A DNA stretch of 63,150 nt from an uncultured Candidatus Saccharibacteria bacterium (GTDB lineage Bacteria > Patescibacteriota > Doudnabacteria > UBA920), in the NCBI GenBank assembly GCA_964532005.1, contig CAZHER010000006.1:1-63150 (forward strand), read 5' to 3'. A program made the translations under genes and the position numbers. Shown in pieces: positions 15,548-60,714 of this stretch. Under the pieces are notes generated by a model that had not been told where the DNA came from, searched no databases, and saw only the letters and a program-made list of their open reading frames with translations. The number at the start of each line of letters is the position of its first letter. Positions within the stretch are counted from its first letter, which is position 1.

Positions 15548-15646
15548 GACATACCTTTCGCCTCGAAGACCCAAATAGCTTTTTGCTGTTTTGGGTCTTC
15601 TTGCATTTTATGGGGGATGGGGGTATAATTTCTTTATAATAAAATA

Positions 15647-15783
15647 TTTATCAAGAGTAGCGGTTAAGGAACTGACCTGTTGACCCGCTCGGCAACCTTT
15701 GCAAAAGCAAGTTGGTGCCAAGTTCAGCCCGCAAGGGACAGATAATTCACATCTTGTTTTCTGCGGTCTGCCGCAGTTTTTTA
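15647..15783 (+). promoter_or_regulatory. SAM-I (S-box) riboswitch with terminator-type expression platform
   Basis: TTATCAAGAG..GG..AAGGAACTGACC..TGACCC..GGCAACC..GGTGCCAAGTTC..CCCGCAAGGG..GATAA, followed by CTGCGG-TCTG-CCGCAG-TTTTTT, directly upstream of metK. Confidence 0.88.
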
Positions 15784-15820
15784 TTAACTAGCTTTGTGCG
15801 GCCAAAGCAGAATAATGTAT

Positions 15821-16759
15821 ATGATAAAAACAGCAGAGTTCATTACCCCAAAACATCCCGATAAAATTTGCGATTTAATAGCAGATACAATTTTAGATGC
15901 CTACATGGCAGAAGATCCATCTAGTAGGGTCGCAGTTGAGGTCATGGGCGGGCATGGAAAAGTTATGGTAACAGGAGAAGTAACCAGCGGAGCTTCTGTG
16001 AACATTGTTGATATTGTGAAATCAATTGAAGGCGATCATACCGAAGTTGATGTGCGCATTGACAAGCAAAGTCTTTTCATTGCTCAAGGGGTGGACGTGG
16101 GTGGTGCAGGCGACCAAGGCATTATGGTTGGGTATGCCTGCAGCGACACTCAAAATTTTATGCCTTTGGAATATGAAACTGCGCGAAATTTGTGCCAGAA
16201 TATTTATGAAAAATATCCATATGACGGAAAAGTACAGGTAACAATGGATGGGGAAAAAGTTTTAACGGTTGTGACGAGTTTCCAAAATTCTACAAATGCA
16301 GAATTGGAACAATTGGTACGGTCTTTGGTGGTCGCAGATAATTATTTGGTAAATCCAGCTGGAGAATGGCAGCAGGGCGGTTTTGAAGCTGATTCAGGAT
16401 TGTCTGGCCGCAAGTTGGTGGTGGACAGCTATGGACCCCAAGTTCCTATTGGTGGCGGGTCGTTTTCCGGCAAGGACTACACCAAAGTTGACAGAAGCGG
16501 AGCATATATGGCGCGTAAAATTGCTGTGGATCTATTGAGGCAGAATAACGCTAATGAGGTTGTTGTTAAATTGGCGTATGCTATAGGCAAAGCAGACCCA
16601 GTAATGGCTATGTCTGTTATCGACGGACAAATAAAAGACATTTCAGGGTATGACTTAACCCCAGCAGGAATAAAAAAAGGTTTGGGTTTAGAGCACGTAA
16701 AATATGCCAGCACAGCTGTTTGGGGTCATTTTGGGCGCGGGTTTACTTGGGATGCATAA
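15821..16759 (+). CDS. metK: S-adenosylmethionine synthetase (compact form)
   Basis: TAEFITPKHPDKICD, GAGDQG, GLSGRK, GGGSFSGKDYTKVDRSGAY and GHFGR motifs. ATG 15821 (or 15815) is preferred over the GTG at 15794. Confidence 0.95.
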   Translation: MIKTAEFITPKHPDKICDLIADTILDAYMAEDPSSRVAVEVMGGHGKVMVTGEVTSGASVNIVDIVKSIEGDHTEVDVRIDKQSLFIAQGVDVGGAGDQGIMVGYACSDTQNFMPLEYETARNLCQNIYEKYPYDGKVQVTMDGEKVLTVVTSFQNSTNAELEQLVRSLVVADNYLVNPAGEWQQGGFEADSGLSGRKLVVDSYGPQVPIGGGSFSGKDYTKVDRSGAYMARKIAVDLLRQNNANEVVVKLAYAIGKADPVMAMSVIDGQIKDISGYDLTPAGIKKGLGLEHVKYASTAVWGHFGRGFTWDA

Positions 16760-46300: not shown

Positions 46301-48115
46301 TTACTTTTTTGTAAAGATTTCTGCTTGTAAATGCTCAACAAACTGCTGGATGCTAATCGACCCCAGATCTTTCTCATTTCTACCTCTGACCGCCACATTG
46401 CCAGATTCAGTCTCTTTGTCGCCGATTACAGCCATATATGGGATTTTTTCACTGCTGGCATCACGGATCTTTTTACCTATAGATTCTGCTCTATCATCAA
46501 TCTCTATTCTAAGATTTTCATTAGCCGCTATTAATTTCTGCTTTACTTCATGTGCACGCTGGATGTGCCTGTCGGCTATTGGAATAATTTTTATCTGGAC
46601 TGGTGAAAGCCACAAAGGAAACGCACCGGCATAGTGTTCAATTAAAATTCCAATAAATCTTTCTAGTGAACCGTATATTACTCTGTGTATCGCGACTGGT
46701 CGCTGCCTGCTACCATCAGCTGCTGTGTACTCTAAGTTAAATTGGCGCGGTTGTTGGAAATCTAGTTGAATTGTTCCCATCTGCCATTCACGACCAAGCA
46801 CATCTTTCATTAATATGTCTACTTTGGGGCCATAGAATGCGCCATCACCTTCTTCTATATAGTACTCTTTACCGCTTTTTTCTAGTATTCTTTTGAGGGC
46901 ATCTTCTGCTTTATTCCAAGTCTCTACATCGCCTAAAAAGCTTTCTGGTCTCGTTCCCAGCCGGAATTTATAGCTTAGATTAAATATTCCATAGAATTTT
47001 TCGGTAATTTCAAAAATTCTTTCATACTCTTCTTCTATTTGATCTTCTGTAATGAAGTTGTGCGAATCGTCTTGTCTGAAAGATCGGACTCGAAATAGAC
47101 CGTTTAATGCGCCGGCAAGTTCATAGCGATGTAAAGTATCTGTATCGGAAAGTCTTAATGGTAAATCGCGATAGCTTCTACTTTTCGATTCAAATACCAA
47201 CATGGCATTTGGACAGTTCATGGCTTTAACACCATATGTCTCGTTGTCATCGCGTTGGGCAATGAACATATTTTCTTGGTAATGGTCCCAATGCCCAGAA
47301 GTCTCCCAAAGCTCCTTTTTATTTACTAAAGGAGCGGAAATTTCTTGGTAGTCTCTCTTTTTATGCTCTTTTCTCCAAAAATCAATCAGTTCATTCATTA
47401 TAGTCATACCCTTAGGGAGCCAATATGGCATACCCGGAGCCGTAGGATGAAACATAAAAAGCTCTAATTGTGGACCTAGTTTTTTGTGGTCTCGCTTTTC
47501 CGCTTCTTCCAAAAGGTTTAAATGATTTTTTAAAGCTTCTTTATTTTCAAAAGCAAGTCCGTAAATACGCTGCAGTTGCGGCTTTTCCTGGTCCCCTCTC
47601 CAATATGCACCGGAAATTTTATACAACATAAATGAACCTTCAGCAATTTCATTGGTGTTGTTAACATGACCACCTCTACATAAGTCAATAAATTTGCCCG
47701 TTTTGTATAGACTTACAACTGGATTTTTTTCTGAGGTATCTTCGAACTTGCCCAAGGAATCGTCACTGTTTAAAATTTGATCTGCTTTGGTTGTGCCAAA
47801 TTTTTCAATATCTGAGATGAGTTCTATTTTGAAAGGCTGGTTTTTTTCCTCAAAAAACCTTTTTGCCTCATCAGTGCTCATTTCTTGACGTTCAAAATCG
47901 AGGTTTTGAGCTGCCAACTCTTGCATCCGTTTTTCTAATTTTGGAAGATCTTCAGGTGTAAGCGGTCTTGGAAGCAAGAAGTCATAATAAAATCCAGACT
48001 CAATAACAGGTCCTACACCTAATTTTGCTTCGGGAAATTGCTCTGTCACTGCCGTTGCAAGCAGGTGAGCAAGCGAGTGTCTCTGGTTATTTAATTGCTC
48101 ATTATTATTTGGCAT
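46301..48115 (-). CDS. thrS: Threonine--tRNA ligase
   Basis: RHSLAH, FYYDF, DLCRGGH, RDHKKLG, KAMNCP, GAFYGPK, TIQLDF and HRVIYGSLERF motifs. ATG 48115 is preferred over the track start at 48157. Confidence 0.97.
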   Translation of the reverse strand: MPNNNEQLNNQRHSLAHLLATAVTEQFPEAKLGVGPVIESGFYYDFLLPRPLTPEDLPKLEKRMQELAAQNLDFERQEMSTDEAKRFFEEKNQPFKIELISDIEKFGTTKADQILNSDDSLGKFEDTSEKNPVVSLYKTGKFIDLCRGGHVNNTNEIAEGSFMLYKISGAYWRGDQEKPQLQRIYGLAFENKEALKNHLNLLEEAEKRDHKKLGPQLELFMFHPTAPGMPYWLPKGMTIMNELIDFWRKEHKKRDYQEISAPLVNKKELWETSGHWDHYQENMFIAQRDDNETYGVKAMNCPNAMLVFESKSRSYRDLPLRLSDTDTLHRYELAGALNGLFRVRSFRQDDSHNFITEDQIEEEYERIFEITEKFYGIFNLSYKFRLGTRPESFLGDVETWNKAEDALKRILEKSGKEYYIEEGDGAFYGPKVDILMKDVLGREWQMGTIQLDFQQPRQFNLEYTAADGSRQRPVAIHRVIYGSLERFIGILIEHYAGAFPLWLSPVQIKIIPIADRHIQRAHEVKQKLIAANENLRIEIDDRAESIGKKIRDASSEKIPYMAVIGDKETESGNVAVRGRNEKDLGSISIQQFVEHLQAEIFTKK

Positions 48116-48276
48116 ATGTTTTATTGTGTTATAGTATAAATTTGAAAATTTGGCCAAAGTGGGGGAAGGATGAAAAGTTATGACATTTTCGCTGTCATTG
48201 TCGGGCTAATTTCGGAAACGACGCTAGTTGTTAGCCGTCTGGTGCATTTCGTTTCACGATTGTTTTAGCTCTTGGC

Positions 48277-48446
48277 AAAAAAAGACCCCAGAACCGTTTT
48301 CGTTATAACGAAAATTTGGTTCTGGGGTCTAACATTTGAGTATAGACGGTTCCGTCCCAGTCCGTTGGCGCTAGGCCAACCTTTTTGAGGTTATGTACTT
48401 AACTCAGTCTCTCCGGTTGGTAGCCGTGTCTTAAACTGAATGTGCT
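48277..48446 (-). promoter_or_regulatory. T-box-like attenuator leader upstream of thrS
   Basis: Antiterminator CUGGG-ACGGAACC-GUCUA..UAGAC-CCCAG overlapping the terminator AGACCCCAGAACC..GGUUCUGGGGUCU-UUUUUU. An ACC (Thr) codon sits in a 5' hairpin loop; TATAAT at 48453-48458. Confidence 0.6.
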
Positions 48447-48458
48447 AAATGTATTATA

Positions 48459-51400
48459 TCACTGTCCGCTGACCTTTGCAATTTGGGGCAAGTTTCGAAG
48501 CGCTTTTATAAAATCGGGATTTACTCTGACTTGAGAATTAGTTTTAAGCTTTTTCTCCCCCGAAGGGCCTGTGATGCTTAGATAGACCTGCGCATATCCT
48601 GGGAAAGCCTCAATTATATCTTTGATCTTCAACAAAGTTTGTTGTGAGCTGTCTGTTAGATGAATAACAACTTCCTTATTTTTTTCCATTTCCGCAAGTG
48701 CCATGCTATACAAGTCGTCATTTGGTAGAGGGGATATATTTTCGGCAATTATTTTAAATTCACCGTCTTTGTCAGAAATTTTGCCAGAAACTTGAACTAT
48801 TTTATCTAGGTCCAGATAGGGCATGGCTTCTGCCATAACTTTTGGAAAAACCAAGACCTCTACATTTCCCGAAGGATCCTGTAAAGTGAAAAAAGCCATT
48901 GGATCGTTTTTTTTCGTTAAAGTTCGCTTGTATTTTGTTATTAATCCACCTATTTCTAGAGTGCTATTTGTAGGCAATTCCGCCAGAGCAGCAATTTTTG
49001 TATAACCTGACAGCACCGTTTGGTAGCTGTCTAGCGGATGCGCTGAAACATACAATCCCAGATATTCTTTTTCCCACACTAGTTTTTGATCCATAGGAGC
49101 TTGTTCGGTATCCTTTAGGATAATTTTTCCAAAATTGGAATTTGCTCCAAACAAGGATGCTTGCTGGCTTTTGCTTTCCTGGGTGTGTTCACGTAGAAAA
49201 TTGAGAACTGTTTCAGTGTTAAATAATAGCTGGTTTCTTTCCCCAAACTTATCCATAGCCCCAGATTTAACAAGTGCTTCCCAAGATTTTTTGTTAAGAT
49301 TTTTTGTTTGGCACTTAATGAGAAAATCTTGCAGATTTTCGAATTTGATCCCAGCCTTATGGCAAGAAATTATTTTTTCAACTACGTCAGATCCAAGATT
49401 TTTAACTGCATTCAGACCGAACCGGATTGTTTTTTCGTTTATTACGGTAAAGTTGTCGTAAGATTCAGTTACATCCGGTGGCAAAACATCTATTCCTAAA
49501 TTTCGACACTCTTCTACTGCTGCGTAAATCTTTTCTTCATCACCAGACTCAGCCGTCATGACAGCAGCCATGAATTCAACCGAATAATTGGCTTTCATAA
49601 AGGCTGTCTGATACGACACAACCGCATATGATGCGGAATGCGCTTTATTGAAACCATATGCCGCAAATGGTTCTATCCAGTTCCATACTTCATTAGCTTT
49701 GGCATGGCTCCAGCCGCTGGTATCCTGGCAACCTTGGATGAATTTAATTTTTTGCTTTGCCATTTCAGCAGGTATTTTCTTTCCAACTGCTTTTCGAAAT
49801 TTATCTACCTCTTCCAAAGTATACCCCGCCAAGTCGTGGGCAATTGTTAACAGATCGTCTTGGTAAACCAAGATTCCATAAGACCGTTGCAGGATTTTTT
49901 CGAGTGCCGGATCTAAATAGGTAACTAGGTCCGGATTGTTCTTTCTCCTAATGTAGTCGGGTAGGAATTGCATAGGACCTGGCCGGTACAAAGCTATCAT
50001 GGCCATGATTTCGAAGATTGTATTTGGCTTCAGGTCGCGTAAATAATGGGTCATTCCTGACGATCCAAGTTGGAAAACCCCAAAGGTTAACCCATCTGAT
50101 AGTAGTTTGAAAGTTTTGGGATCAGGGTGTGGAAGATTGTAAATATCAACATCAACTTTGTGTCGTATTCTTACTAATTTTACAGCTTCTTCAAGAATGG
50201 AAAGGTTTCGAATTCCGAGAAGATCCAGCTTGATAACTCCAATAGCATCCCCTTTGGCGTTAACATCCAAGGAGTACATGTCGTATTGTGTAATTTGTCT
50301 GTCGCCGTCAGGTTCGCGTTGTAGCGGCATGTACTGAGTTAACGGTTCCGGTGTGATTACTATCCCAGCCGCGTGAATAGAGGCATGCCTTGCACAACCC
50401 TCCAGTTTCTTTGCAATGTCCAATATTTTGTGGGTTTCTGGATCTTGGGTATAAACCTGCTTCAATTCTTGATTCATATCCAAAGCTTTATCCAGTGTCA
50501 TATCAAAACCTTGTTTGCCAAGAGGAATCATTTTGGCAATCCTATCGCACTTACTGTATGAAACTCCTAGAGCTCGTCCAACATCACGTACCGCAGCCCT
50601 TGCCTTCATTGTCCCAAAAGTTATTATTTGGGCAACTTTTTCCTTTCCAAACTCATTTGTCATCCACTCAATAACTTCATCCCGGCGGTTATCAGCAATA
50701 TCCAGGTCAATATCCGGGGGAGTGGGACGGTGCAAAGTCAGAAAACGTTCAAATGGCAGTTCGTAGTATAAAGGGTCAACATTGGTAATTCCTAGGATTT
50801 TTCCGACAATACTCCCGGCTGCGGAGCCTCTGGTGTTGGTGAACGCTTTCAGGTCACGCGCCCCTTCTACTACACGGGCCACCATTAAAAAATATGGGGC
50901 AAATCCTTTGGTGCAAATAATATCCAGCTCGTAATTGATCCGTTCTAGCACTTTTTCCGGAACCACGCTATTTTGTCCGTTGTATGAAATTTGTGCTTTC
51001 TCAAGAACAATTTTTCTAAGGTAGTCTTCTGAAGTGGTTCCGGCAGGAATTTTTACTTTTGGGAAATAGCGTTGGTTTGTAGGGATTTCCAATTCACACT
51101 GTTCAGCAATAATTTGAGTATTTGCTAAGGCTTCTGGTATGTCCGAAAATAATTGTTCCATTTCTTCTATGCTTCTGAACGATAAGTTGTGCGTCCTCAT
51201 ATCAAGACGGTTAGGATCATCTACTGTTTTTCCGGTCCCAATGCACACCATCACATCCTGTGCTTCCGCATCATCTTCGTGAATATAATGACTATCTGCA
51301 GTTGCCACTATCCCTACATTATGAATTTTTCCTAACTTGATGAGTTTGTTGTTGAGTTCGTCTTGTGCAGATTTATCTGCAGAATCAAGCGCATTTCGCT

Positions 51401-51920
51401 GGATTTCCAAGTAAAAATTTTCCCGACCAAAAATTTGTAAATACAGGTTCAGCTTTTTGCCTGCTTCCTGCTCGGAAATTCCTATAGCCTTAGGAATCTC
51501 TCCCGTTTGACATCCGGACAGCGCAATCAATCCATCACTGTATTTGCTGAGTACTTCTTTGTCCACTCTAGGTTTGTAGTAGAATCCTTCAGTACTGGCA
51601 ATAGTTGCGAGTTTCATTAAGTTCAGGTAACCTTGATAATTTTTTGCCAGCAAAGTCAGATGGAAATAATTTGCATCCTGGCGTCCTTCCTTGTCGTTCA
51701 GACTCCTGGGCGCAATGTAAGCTTCCATTCCAATTATAGGTTTGATGTTTGCTGTTTTGCAGGCGTTGTAAAATTCGATCGCACCATACATTGATCCATG
51801 ATCCGTTATGGCAATGGCTTCCATTCCTTTTTCCGAGGCAGCCTGAACCAGGTCGTCAATTTTAGACAGACCGTCTAGAAGCGAGTAATGAGTATGACAG
51901 TGAAGGTGAGTGAATGACAT
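48459..51920 (-). CDS. dnaE: DNA polymerase III alpha subunit
   Basis: PHP HLHCHTHYSLLDG, RGSAAGS, PDIDLD, IKLDLLG, YGFNKAHS motifs and OB fold. No intein. Confidence 0.97.
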   Translation of the reverse strand: MSFTHLHCHTHYSLLDGLSKIDDLVQAASEKGMEAIAITDHGSMYGAIEFYNACKTANIKPIIGMEAYIAPRSLNDKEGRQDANYFHLTLLAKNYQGYLNLMKLATIASTEGFYYKPRVDKEVLSKYSDGLIALSGCQTGEIPKAIGISEQEAGKKLNLYLQIFGRENFYLEIQRNALDSADKSAQDELNNKLIKLGKIHNVGIVATADSHYIHEDDAEAQDVMVCIGTGKTVDDPNRLDMRTHNLSFRSIEEMEQLFSDIPEALANTQIIAEQCELEIPTNQRYFPKVKIPAGTTSEDYLRKIVLEKAQISYNGQNSVVPEKVLERINYELDIICTKGFAPYFLMVARVVEGARDLKAFTNTRGSAAGSIVGKILGITNVDPLYYELPFERFLTLHRPTPPDIDLDIADNRRDEVIEWMTNEFGKEKVAQIITFGTMKARAAVRDVGRALGVSYSKCDRIAKMIPLGKQGFDMTLDKALDMNQELKQVYTQDPETHKILDIAKKLEGCARHASIHAAGIVITPEPLTQYMPLQREPDGDRQITQYDMYSLDVNAKGDAIGVIKLDLLGIRNLSILEEAVKLVRIRHKVDVDIYNLPHPDPKTFKLLSDGLTFGVFQLGSSGMTHYLRDLKPNTIFEIMAMIALYRPGPMQFLPDYIRRKNNPDLVTYLDPALEKILQRSYGILVYQDDLLTIAHDLAGYTLEEVDKFRKAVGKKIPAEMAKQKIKFIQGCQDTSGWSHAKANEVWNWIEPFAAYGFNKAHSASYAVVSYQTAFMKANYSVEFMAAVMTAESGDEEKIYAAVEECRNLGIDVLPPDVTESYDNFTVINEKTIRFGLNAVKNLGSDVVEKIISCHKAGIKFENLQDFLIKCQTKNLNKKSWEALVKSGAMDKFGERNQLLFNTETVLNFLREHTQESKSQQASLFGANSNFGKIILKDTEQAPMDQKLVWEKEYLGLYVSAHPLDSYQTVLSGYTKIAALAELPTNSTLEIGGLITKYKRTLTKKNDPMAFFTLQDPSGNVEVLVFPKVMAEAMPYLDLDKIVQVSGKISDKDGEFKIIAENISPLPNDDLYSMALAEMEKNKEVVIHLTDSSQQTLLKIKDIIEAFPGYAQVYLSITGPSGEKKLKTNSQVRVNPDFIKALRNLPQIAKVSGQ

Positions 51921-60054: not shown

Positions 60055-60130
60055 GCCGTTGTAGCTCAGTAGGTAGAGCATCTCCATGGTAAGGAGAAGG
60101 TCTGCGGTTCGATCCCGCACAACGGCTCCA
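60055..60130 (+). tRNA. tRNA-Thr(GGT)
   Basis: GCCGTTGTAGCTCAG..CATGGTAAG..GGTTCGATCCC..AACGGCTCCA. Confidence 0.96.
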
Positions 60131-60138
60131 TAAAATTA

Positions 60139-60224
60139 GGGTAGGTACTCAAGTGGTCAACGAGGGCTGACTGTAAATCAGCTGGCTTATGCCTTCACAG
60201 GTTCGAATCCTGTCCTGCCCACCA
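60139..60224 (+). tRNA. tRNA-Tyr(GTA)
   Basis: GGGTAGG..GACTGTAAATC..long variable arm..GGTTCGAATCC..CCTGCCCACCA. Confidence 0.96.
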
Positions 60225-60298
60225 AAAGAAAGAGTGAGCCTTGCATTTTAGGCTCATTTGTGCGATAATGTGGTTTATAAGAGCATTGCTCTAAACGC

Positions 60299-60374
60299 GC
60301 CGGCTTAGCTCATCTGGTAGAGCAACGGTTTTGTAAACCGTAGGTGGCCGGTTCGAGCCCGGCAGCCGGCTCCA
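60299..60374 (+). tRNA. tRNA-Thr(TGT)
   Basis: GCCGGCTTAGCTCA..TTTTGTAAAC..GGTTCGAGCCC..GCCGGCTCCA. Confidence 0.96.
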
Positions 60375-60406
60375 TAAATTTTTATACATTAATTTGAAAA
60401 TACAGT

Positions 60407-60562
60407 ATGTCACAAGACAATCGCATTGATATGGAATGCACTGAGTGTAAAAGAATTACTCATCAGACGAACAAGAACAAGAAGAATACTCCGAAGCGTC
60501 TTGAGCTGATGAAGTTTTGCAAATTTTGCAAGAAAAAGACTTTACATAAGGAAACTAAGTAG
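60407..60562 (+). CDS. rpmG: 50S ribosomal protein L33 (missed by the ORF track)
   Basis: [51 protein letters not shown]. Confidence 0.95.
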
Positions 60563-60640
60563 ACCTCGCGCAAGCCGCGAGGTTTGCTATAATAGGAATG
60601 GTCAGGCAGGTAACTGCTTGACCCCTAAATACCCAATTGT

Positions 60641-60714
60641 GGGGGCGTCGTATAATGGTAGTACAGCGGTCTCCAAAACCGCTTGCGTGGGTTCGATTCC
60701 TACCGCCCCTGCCA
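60641..60714 (+). tRNA. tRNA-Trp(CCA)
   Basis: GGGGGCGTCGTATAATGGTAGTACAGCGGTCTCCAAAACCGCTTGCGTGGGTTCGATTCCTACCGCCCCTGCCA. Confidence 0.95.

Follow-up and report, generated by a model that had tools for sequence, protein, structure and literature searches.

Genomic context of the thrS leader

We analysed a stretch of 63,150 nucleotides (nt) from an uncultured Candidatus Saccharibacteria bacterium (positions 1 to 63,150 of contig CAZHER010000006.1, assembly GCA_964532005.1; hereafter, the window), with a focus on the leader of thrS, the gene encoding threonine--tRNA ligase (ThrS). According to its ThrS relatives, the organism belongs to the Saccharibacteria-like Patescibacteria. The order dnaE, leader and thrS is found on one strand (minus), and the gap between the two genes is 343 nt long. 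The thrS product comprises 604 amino acids from the ATG at 48115, and the open frame extends back to a TTG at 48157. An earlier reading made from the letters alone (the sequence-only reading) had described this leader as a divergent transcriptional T-box reading tRNA-Thr(GGU). This description is now supported by comparative evidence, namely homologous leaders with a canonical T-box bulge, covariation of the predicted helices and overlap of the antiterminator with a terminator. We consider it very probable that the leader is a transcriptional T-box attenuator of thrS that would read uncharged tRNA-Thr(GGU). The features discussed below are listed in Table 1.

The TATAAT that had been recognized on the minus strand proved to be the -10 hexamer of a promoter with 10 of 12 matches to the consensus, in which a TG is located one base upstream of TATAAT. 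The -10 region overlaps the stop codon of dnaE (TGA, 48461-48459). This promoter is conserved in L201 and L001, the thrS leaders that are the two closest relatives of that in the window, and its TGATATAAT is identical in all three. The distance from the terminator to the thrS ATG is about 25-40 nt in L201 and L001, whereas it is about 160 nt in the window. No second copy of this spacer (48116-48276) was found in the window or in any of the fetched thrS loci.

Table 1. Features of the dnaE-thrS region and the predicted tRNA ligand of the leader
Feature	Position	Strand	Description
dnaE	48459..51920	minus	NF004226, 1202 bits
Leader promoter	48453..48481	minus	-35 TTGCAA (48481-48476), 17-nt spacer, -10 TATAAT (48458-48453)
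Ultrashort Stem I	48403..48440	minus	38 nt; C-stem UUCAGUU/GACUGAG (7 bp), kink turn (K-turn), CGG/CCG, loop CUACCAA
Specifier ACC (Thr codon)	48419..48421	minus	Positions 3-5 of the 7-nt apical loop (48423-48417); AA next
Single-stranded linker	48381..48402	minus	22 nt where relatives carry a putative Stem II; 3' end AAAAG (48385-48381)
Stem III	48364..48380	minus	GUUGGC-CUAGC-GCCAAC, then purines GGA (48363-48361)
Antiterminator	48322..48360	minus	A1 CUGGG (48360-48356)/CCCAG (48326-48322); A2 GUCUA (48347-48343)/UAGAC (48331-48327); 11-nt loop
T-box bulge, variant form ACGGAACC	48348..48355	minus	8 nt, between A1 and A2
Intrinsic terminator	48277..48330	minus	AGACCCCAGAACC...GGUUCUGGGGUCU, inner hairpin UUUUCGU/ACGAAAA (48330-48283), then U7 (48282-48277)
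Spacer between terminator and thrS ATG	48116..48276	minus	About 160 nt; specific to the window's genome
thrS (threonine--tRNA ligase, regulated gene)	46301..48115	minus	TIGR00418, 676 bits, E 4.8e-203
tRNA-Thr(GGU), predicted ligand	60055..60130	plus	Anticodon loop AUGGUAA; 3' end GGC-U73-CCA gene-encoded

Architecture of the leader

The short Stem I-like domain with the apical hairpin CGG-CUACCAA-CCG, which the sequence-only reading had put after the TATAAT, holds as a conserved and covarying element. At the sequence level, it carries the signature of a K-turn, namely a 3-nt bulge (UAA) and GA (48430-48429) opposite GA (48411-48410). Stem I ends at the 7-nt specifier loop after 3 bp and is thus devoid of the distal platform (AG bulge, distal loop and T-loops). 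The sequence ACCAA in this loop is invariant in all 20 leaders of the family described below; thus, the specifier has a purine as its 3' neighbour. The ACC specifier is complementary to the GGU anticodon of the tRNA-Thr encoded at 60055-60130. The loop had been likened to an anticodon loop, and this likeness is valid for its size and for the position of the triplet. However, any of the four bases (U, G, C or A) can occupy loop position 2 within the family; therefore, a mimic of the U33-type U-turn is not conserved.

Only the 22-nt linker lies between Stem I and Stem III in the window, which has neither Stem II (with its S-turn) nor the IIA/B pseudoknot. The AAAAG at the 3' end of the linker fits the RRRxG purine motif of T-box discriminators and is retained in the relatives. 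The purine string 5'-RRRxG-Stem III-AA-3' is regarded as a hallmark of the T-box discriminator (PMC7583486); in the window, the 3' flank of Stem III is GGA instead of AA. Stem III corresponds to a hairpin (GUUGGC/GCCAAC) that had been noticed from the sequence, and it is preserved with compensatory changes in the two closest relatives (GCCGGC/GCUGGU in L201 and GCGGCG/CGCCGC in L001). The Stem III hairpin was also detected on the plus strand. A second hairpin proposed in the sequence-only reading (AACCU/AGGUU) shares nucleotides with Stem III and lacks a counterpart in L001; we dropped it as a conserved element.

The antiterminator is overlapped by a terminator with a local folding energy of -30.5 kcal/mol, in which the 3' strands of both A2 and A1 are used again, and the two structures are therefore mutually exclusive. 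The strong, mutually exclusive terminator with a U-tract was also part of the sequence-only reading, and the same overlap with the 3' strands of A2 and A1 was found in all of the 15 leaders parsed. The calculated energy of the terminator state is -47.3 kcal/mol versus -26.2 kcal/mol for the antiterminator state, a gap of about 21 kcal/mol. Because the terminator state is the more stable one, OFF is the default state. The fold of the leader is better than that of 200 of 200 shuffled sequences (z = -4.6). The section running from Stem I through the antiterminator is about 125 nt long, and with the terminator it reaches about 170 nt. The expression platform consists of the hairpin and U7, lies about 165 nt before the ATG, and contains no Shine-Dalgarno-like sequence.

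A family of related leaders in Patescibacteria

The comparison was based on 80 thrS loci from species genomes and 13 more loci that were obtained through close ThrS homologues. The leader in the window and 19 related Patescibacteria thrS leaders form one family. Twelve of the 20 contain the variant bulge ACGGAA(A/C/U)C (the window, L201, L001, L202, L203, L205, L207, L208, L209, L210, L002 and L003). The other eight (L204, L206, L212, L213, L027, L028, L022 and L009) have the same small Stem I together with a canonical GGGUGGAACC T-box, which reads UGGAACC or UGGAAAC in the context GGUGGAA(C/A)C. As homologous thrS leaders with the same ultrashort Stem I carry the canonical GGGUGGAACC, the element in the window is tied to ordinary T-boxes. 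A chain thus leads from an ordinary T-box to a miniature T-box with a canonical bulge and from there to a miniature form in which the bulge is of the variant type.

Among the species genomes, the closest relative is L001, whose leader was matched with an E-value of 3e-18 by nhmmer. It retains CGGCUACCAACCG and CUGGGACGGAA, and its basal stem is altered on both strands in a compensated manner. The gene order dnaE-leader-thrS is preserved in L201, L203, L204, L209 and L212, and the element stays with thrS in L202, L205, L206 and L207 despite inserted genes or a non-adjacent dnaE. In the ThrS tree, 10 of the 12 variant leaders form one clade (support 95/69), which is sister to five canonical-bulge leaders (99/96), and the node joining the two groups is supported by 100/100. 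L002 and L003 fall in an unresolved part of the tree; therefore, the variant bulge arose once or twice.

The covariation expected for related Patescibacteria leaders if the sequence-only reading was correct was found in both Stem I and the antiterminator. In a gap-free alignment of Stem I from nine leaders, 92.9% of the cells are paired, and 9 of the 11 pairs have changed on both sides. None of 500 shuffles was as good, and no more than 47.5% of the cells were paired in slid controls. The K-turn residues G12, A13, G31 and A32 are invariant in this alignment, and the flanking stems covary. A covariance model (R1) built from the nine-leader alignment found 17 sites, including three outside the seed (L205, L206 and L207; E-values of 1e-11 to 5e-8), and a T-box discriminator and a terminator are present downstream of the Stem I in each of the three. 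Among the 17 R1 sites, 95.6% of the cells of Stem I are paired and 10 of the 11 pairs are compensatory.

The antiterminator proposed in the sequence-only reading (CUGGG/CCCAG and GUCUA/UAGAC around the bulge) was likewise borne out, with all cells (100%) paired in the 12 variant leaders and 4 of the 10 pairs compensatory. These pairs were counted on the variant set alone, because a MAFFT alignment of the variant and canonical leaders shifts A1 by one column. The GGG/CCC core of the antiterminator is invariant in the 12 leaders, as in other T-boxes. Beyond its fifth pair, A2 consists of sequences that are unrelated between leaders, with pairing preserved.

Several structural peculiarities were observed in individual members of the family. 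In nine relatives (L002, L003, L202, L203, L205, L207, L208, L209 and L210), Stem I is followed, before Stem III, by an additional hairpin with a freely covarying stem and a loop that always contains UUCUAGAG. The UUCUA in this loop agrees with the T-loop consensus. The subgroup comprising the window, L201 and L001 has lost this hairpin. Stem III is absent from some members, in which AAAG plus 5 nt leads straight into A1 (L208:190-210, L209:1305-1320, L027:1365-1385 and L213:1380-1400); according to a review, an antiterminator without Stem III is unable to bind tRNA appreciably. In L205 (600-905; 1062-1457), Stem III is roughly 20 bp long and its loop contains an insertion of about 260 nt. A gene is located between the T-box terminator and thrS in three loci, encoding a PDDEXK_3 protein in L205, an Asp/Glu racemase in L206 (681-1496) and an unknown protein in L207 (504-1220), where the switch would control a two-gene unit. 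The terminator-thrS spacers of L003 (1400-1500), L209 (1400-1500) and L202 (1385-1480) contain repeated ACGAAU/AUUCGU and CCGAAU/AUUCGG sequences that form hairpin modules.

The variant bulge and its fit to tRNA-Thr

The bulge ACGGAACC does not conform to the canonical 7-nt form UGGNACC, in which UGGN lies directly beside A1. That it consists of 8 nt with C replacing U had been stated correctly in the sequence-only reading. In all of the 12 variant leaders, AC stands in place of the canonical U (the bulge being ACGGAANC in the window's clade). Moreover, UGGGACGGAA is invariant in the 12 leaders, the ThrS proteins of which are 61-87% identical to that of the window, whereas free variation is seen among these leaders in the adjacent linker, at bulge position 7 and in the A2 loop. 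The invariance of UGGGACGGAA amid diverging surroundings and diverging ThrS sequences indicates that the variant bulge is under selection and represents neither an error nor decay. Together with the ACCAA loop, this bulge is conserved in the 12 variant leaders. This conserved, non-canonical and putatively acceptor-binding bulge is what sets the clade apart within the miniature Patescibacteria thrS T-boxes.

The GGA of the bulge is complementary to U73-C74-C75 of tRNA-Thr(GGU). The fit of its variable A to a U discriminator, which had been noted from the sequence, applies to both tRNA-Thr genes in the window, as tRNA-Thr(UGU) also ends in UCCA. The two genes belong to a tRNA cluster at 60055-60714 on the plus strand, in the order Thr(GGU), Tyr(GUA), Thr(UGU) and Trp(CCA), and both Thr genes encode the CCA. 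Across the whole family, including the window, G-C forms the terminal pair of A2, whereas the corresponding pair in solved T-box structures is a G-U 'steric sensor'.

A further property of the variant bulge is its capacity to form a small hairpin. Because AC can pair with the GU at the start of A2, the hairpin (G)GACG-GAAN-CGUC(U) is possible in all 12 variant leaders, with energies of -5.3 to -9.0 kcal/mol and 95.8% of the cells paired. Covariation is uninformative on this hairpin because its 5' side never varies. Canonical-bulge relatives can form other small hairpins too. To judge from the sequences, it is a possibility that the hairpin hides GGA in the OFF state and that AC has been selected for it.

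Searches with existing models and patterns

No match to RF00230 at its gathering score (93 bits) was found anywhere in the window, and Rfam searches at the gathering score detected no T-box among 40 thrS loci. Two of the canonical-bulge leaders gave weak matches to RF00230, with scores of 22 bits (L022) and 20 bits (L027). Scores for thrS leaders with a long Stem I were 71 bits (L006:1136-1382), 63 bits (L024:1150-1398) and 49 bits (L063:1096-1384); these leaders come from Chloroflexi-like and Gracilibacteria genomes. Because all three scores are under the gathering score, routine Rfam annotation would miss the T-boxes of L006, L024 and L063. We also scanned metagenomes with the pattern TGGGACGGAANCGTC. 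None of the 120 stretches returned encodes ThrS or shows the A1/A2 context; therefore, all of the 120 represent chance matches to a 15-mer. In addition, a match to Plastid-psbA-2, a family of plastid 3'-UTR (untranslated region) hairpins, with 36 bits against a gathering score of 55.8, comprises the terminator hairpin alone and was dismissed as meaningless; it was the sole match at E<=10 on the 511-nt region 48050-48560.

Comparison with known T-box systems

In a four-class scheme, the T-boxes of classes I and II, which are transcriptional, possess a long Stem I bearing a platform that binds the tRNA elbow (PMC10482949). The leader in the window resembles the class II glyQS type (Bacillus subtilis glyQS; RF00230) in having a Stem I with a basal K-turn, a linker in the position of Stem II and a purine-flanked Stem III, and in the competition between the antiterminator (A1, bulge and A2) and an intrinsic terminator. 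In both cases, the specifier matches the regulated synthetase, and the variable base of the bulge matches the tRNA discriminator. Unlike the glyQS type, however, Stem I of the window stops at the specifier and lacks the distal helix, the AG bulge and the double T-loop platform for the tRNA elbow, and the specifier lies in an apical instead of an internal loop. The two also differ in the bulge (ACGGAACC of 8 nt versus UGGNACC of 7 nt), in the terminal pair of A2 (G-C versus G-U) and in the amino acid concerned (threonine versus glycine), and RF00230 gave no match to the window at E<=10.

In class III T-boxes, which act in translational control, a short Stem I presents the codon in an apical loop of 5-6 nt, and Stem II is required (PMC10482949). 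The ultrashort Stem I of actinobacterial ileS leaders with its apical specifier, which the sequence-only reading had cited as a precedent, is indeed described in these terms (Sherwood et al. 2015, reviewed in PMC7583486 and PMC10482949). The ileS leaders of Nocardia farcinica and Mycobacterium tuberculosis share with the window a short Stem I without an elbow platform, a basal K-turn and an apical specifier followed by a purine. However, their specifier loop has 5-6 nt instead of 7 nt, and their binding of tRNA requires both the IIA/B pseudoknot and a Stem II that contains an S-turn, whereas the window has no Stem II. They control translation by hiding the Shine-Dalgarno sequence, in contrast to the transcription terminator in the window. 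The ileS bulge keeps UGGN, and both the phylum and the gene differ.

Among the systems compared, the canonical-bulge miniatures of Patescibacteria (L027, L028, L204, L206, L212 and L213) share with the window Stem I (40-48 bits with R1), the ACCAA loop, the antiterminator/terminator plan and the regulated gene. Five of these six make up the sister clade in the ThrS tree. They differ in having a 7-nt UGGAACC or UGGAAAC where the window's clade has ACGGAANC.

As an analogy only, the variant bulge, which would leave A76 without a Watson-Crick partner, may be compared with the L15 loop of RNase P RNA and the ribosomal P-loop, in which A76 likewise has no such partner. In these two RNAs, GG(U) pairs with C74 and C75, and in RNase P also with position 73. 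They are otherwise unrelated to T-boxes and contain neither aminoacylation sensing nor an antiterminator switch.

Proposed mechanism

Transcription would start about 7 nt 3' of the -10 hexamer. The nascent RNA would then form the ultrashort Stem I, with its K-turn and hairpin, and display ACC in the 7-nt apical loop; Stem III would fold next, between the purines AAAAG (5') and GGA (3'). By default, the strong terminator would form and transcription would halt at the U-tract (48282-48277). When threonine charging is low, the anticodon of uncharged tRNA-Thr(GGU) would pair with ACC and the tRNA's 3' end (U73-C74-C75) would pair with the GGA of the bulge. The tRNA would thereby hold A1 and A2 together, the 5' strand of the terminator would be taken up, and RNA polymerase would read through into thrS.

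The structural elements, their covariation, the overlap between antiterminator and terminator, the fit of codon and bulge, and the homology to leaders with a canonical T-box were all computed, and it is from these that we infer tRNA binding, the rejection of charged tRNA and the relief of termination. The switch departs from described T-boxes in that it is devoid of the distal Stem I platform and, in the window's genome, also of Stem II. We further propose, tentatively and with some doubt, that the clade has a T-box discriminator of its own, in which AC substitutes for the 'invariant' U, the tRNA's 3' end would be held by three Watson-Crick pairs, and the switch would work without the platform and Stem II while still driving a strong terminator. 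If this is true and discrimination between charged and uncharged tRNA is retained, the steric sieve and the stacking geometry would be unlike those of the solved glyQS and ileS T-boxes, and the RNA would represent the smallest natural tRNA-sensing transcription switch.

Alternative explanations

Several observations weigh against a tRNA-responsive T-box. Infernal with RF00230, the check named along with the sequence-only reading, gave no match at E<=10 on the 511-nt region 48050-48560, and this model fails to match L001, L002, L003 and L028 as well. tRNA binding is said to depend on an elbow platform, on the S-turn of Stem II or on the two together, and the window has neither; a long Stem I, which is absent there, is also described as a general requirement of transcriptional T-boxes (PMC7583486, PMC10482949). 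T-box reviews (including PMC7583486) treat the U that pairs with A76 as invariant and the location of UGGN adjoining A1 as mechanistically central, and the stacking of A76 on helix A1 is considered to drive the switch (PMC7583486). In the window, A76 has no Watson-Crick partner (C is opposite), and A1 is separated from the tRNA-bulge helix by one additional A; as a result, capture of the acceptor end may be weak or proceed in another way. The small hairpin GGACG-GAAC-CGUCU, which comprises the bulge and the 5' strand of A2, has an energy of -4.5 to -5.6 kcal/mol in the window and would hide GGA. The spacer before thrS contains a weak promoter-like sequence (TTGGCC...TACTAT/TATAAC in 48116-48276), which was identified by eye and is under the promoter-search threshold, and part of thrS transcription might bypass the switch from there. 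Finally, the sequencing runs that carry the locus include wastewater metagenome DNA runs but no RNA run.

The departures in the bulge could mean that the leader is a decayed T-box, in which capture of the tRNA 3' end has been lost and which would now be an attenuator that is constitutive or controlled in some other way, or an anticodon-only sensor blind to charging. This explanation would account for the missing partner of A76 and the extra A before A1, in an arrangement that the reviews hold to be invariant, and it agrees with the fact that neither an elbow platform nor Stem II adds affinity and that a competing hairpin able to bury GGA is possible in all 12 variant leaders. However, UGGGACGGAA has remained unchanged over the range of ThrS divergence given above while its surroundings vary freely, and GGA still matches U73-C74-C75. 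Furthermore, the complete pairing of A1 and A2, with compensation, would be pointless if nothing stabilised these helices against a terminator that is about 20 kcal/mol stronger. We therefore regard decay as unlikely.

It is very unlikely that the element has no regulatory role in thrS expression and is only the terminator of dnaE, in which case thrS would be transcribed from a separate promoter within the 160-nt spacer and the hairpins further upstream would be incidental structure of a 3' UTR. The terminator, located 130-180 nt past the dnaE stop codon, would indeed end dnaE transcripts too, and the long spacer with its promoter-like sequence seen by eye would suit such an arrangement. Nevertheless, a conserved near-consensus promoter immediately precedes the element; the codon loop, the K-turn, the purine motif, the bulge and the antiterminator are all conserved or covarying; and the element accompanies thrS even where genes are inserted or dnaE is located elsewhere (L202, L205, L206 and L207). 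In the closest relatives, there is no room for a separate thrS promoter because the terminator is only about 25-40 nt before the ATG.

Autoregulation of thrS in E. coli by threonyl-tRNA synthetase (ThrRS), which acts through tRNA-like operator hairpins in the leader, is established, and an apical hairpin with a 7-nt loop shaped like an anticodon loop recalls such a mimic of the anticodon arm. In the leader studied here, however, the loop displays the codon ACC and not a Thr anticodon (GGU, UGU or CGU). ThrRS reads the anticodon bases G35 and U36, and these are missing from the loop because it shows a codon instead of an anticodon. The rest of the leader, moreover, consists of a T-box discriminator, an antiterminator and a terminator, not of a ribosome-binding-site operator, and the hairpin is about 300 nt away from the start codon. 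An operator of the E. coli type was rejected on the basis of the codon in the loop, and we consider it extremely unlikely. Attenuation by a leader peptide was also rejected, since the sole AUG of the leader opens a frame of 10 codons with one Thr codon and is absent from L201.

Implications of a probable T-box attenuator in Patescibacteria

T-boxes serve as the textbook example of an RNA that reads from a second RNA both its identity and its charging state. The present structural model of this process stands on three pillars, namely the grip by the platform or Stem II, the UGGN-NCCA helix stacked on A1, and the G-U steric sieve beside A76. The leader in the window and its relatives keep the logic of the T-box while lacking or altering all three, and thus provide natural tests of aminoacylation sensing and of the race against the terminator. 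With about 125 nt, or about 170 nt including the terminator, the switch may also be of use as a small component of engineered tRNA sensors. If it operates as proposed here, an essential synthetase would be under T-box control in the ultrasmall, host-dependent Patescibacteria, in which standard annotation with RF00230 sees nothing. In the literature library searched, no publication joins T-box, riboswitch and Patescibacteria.

Other features of the window

On the plus strand, a 32-codon open reading frame, MKSYDIFAVIVGLISETTLVVSRLVHFVSRLF (48170-48268), is located immediately 3' of GGGGGAAGG and is antisense to the 5' UTR of thrS; it had no match in a Pfam search. The window also contains an S-adenosylmethionine (SAM, S-box) riboswitch at 15645-15748 on the plus strand, with a score of 52.4 bits, which is over its gathering score. 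This riboswitch is located immediately upstream of metK (15794-16759, plus strand; TIGR01034, 236 bits, under the 309-bit cut-off of the model), and the pair is an ordinary arrangement.

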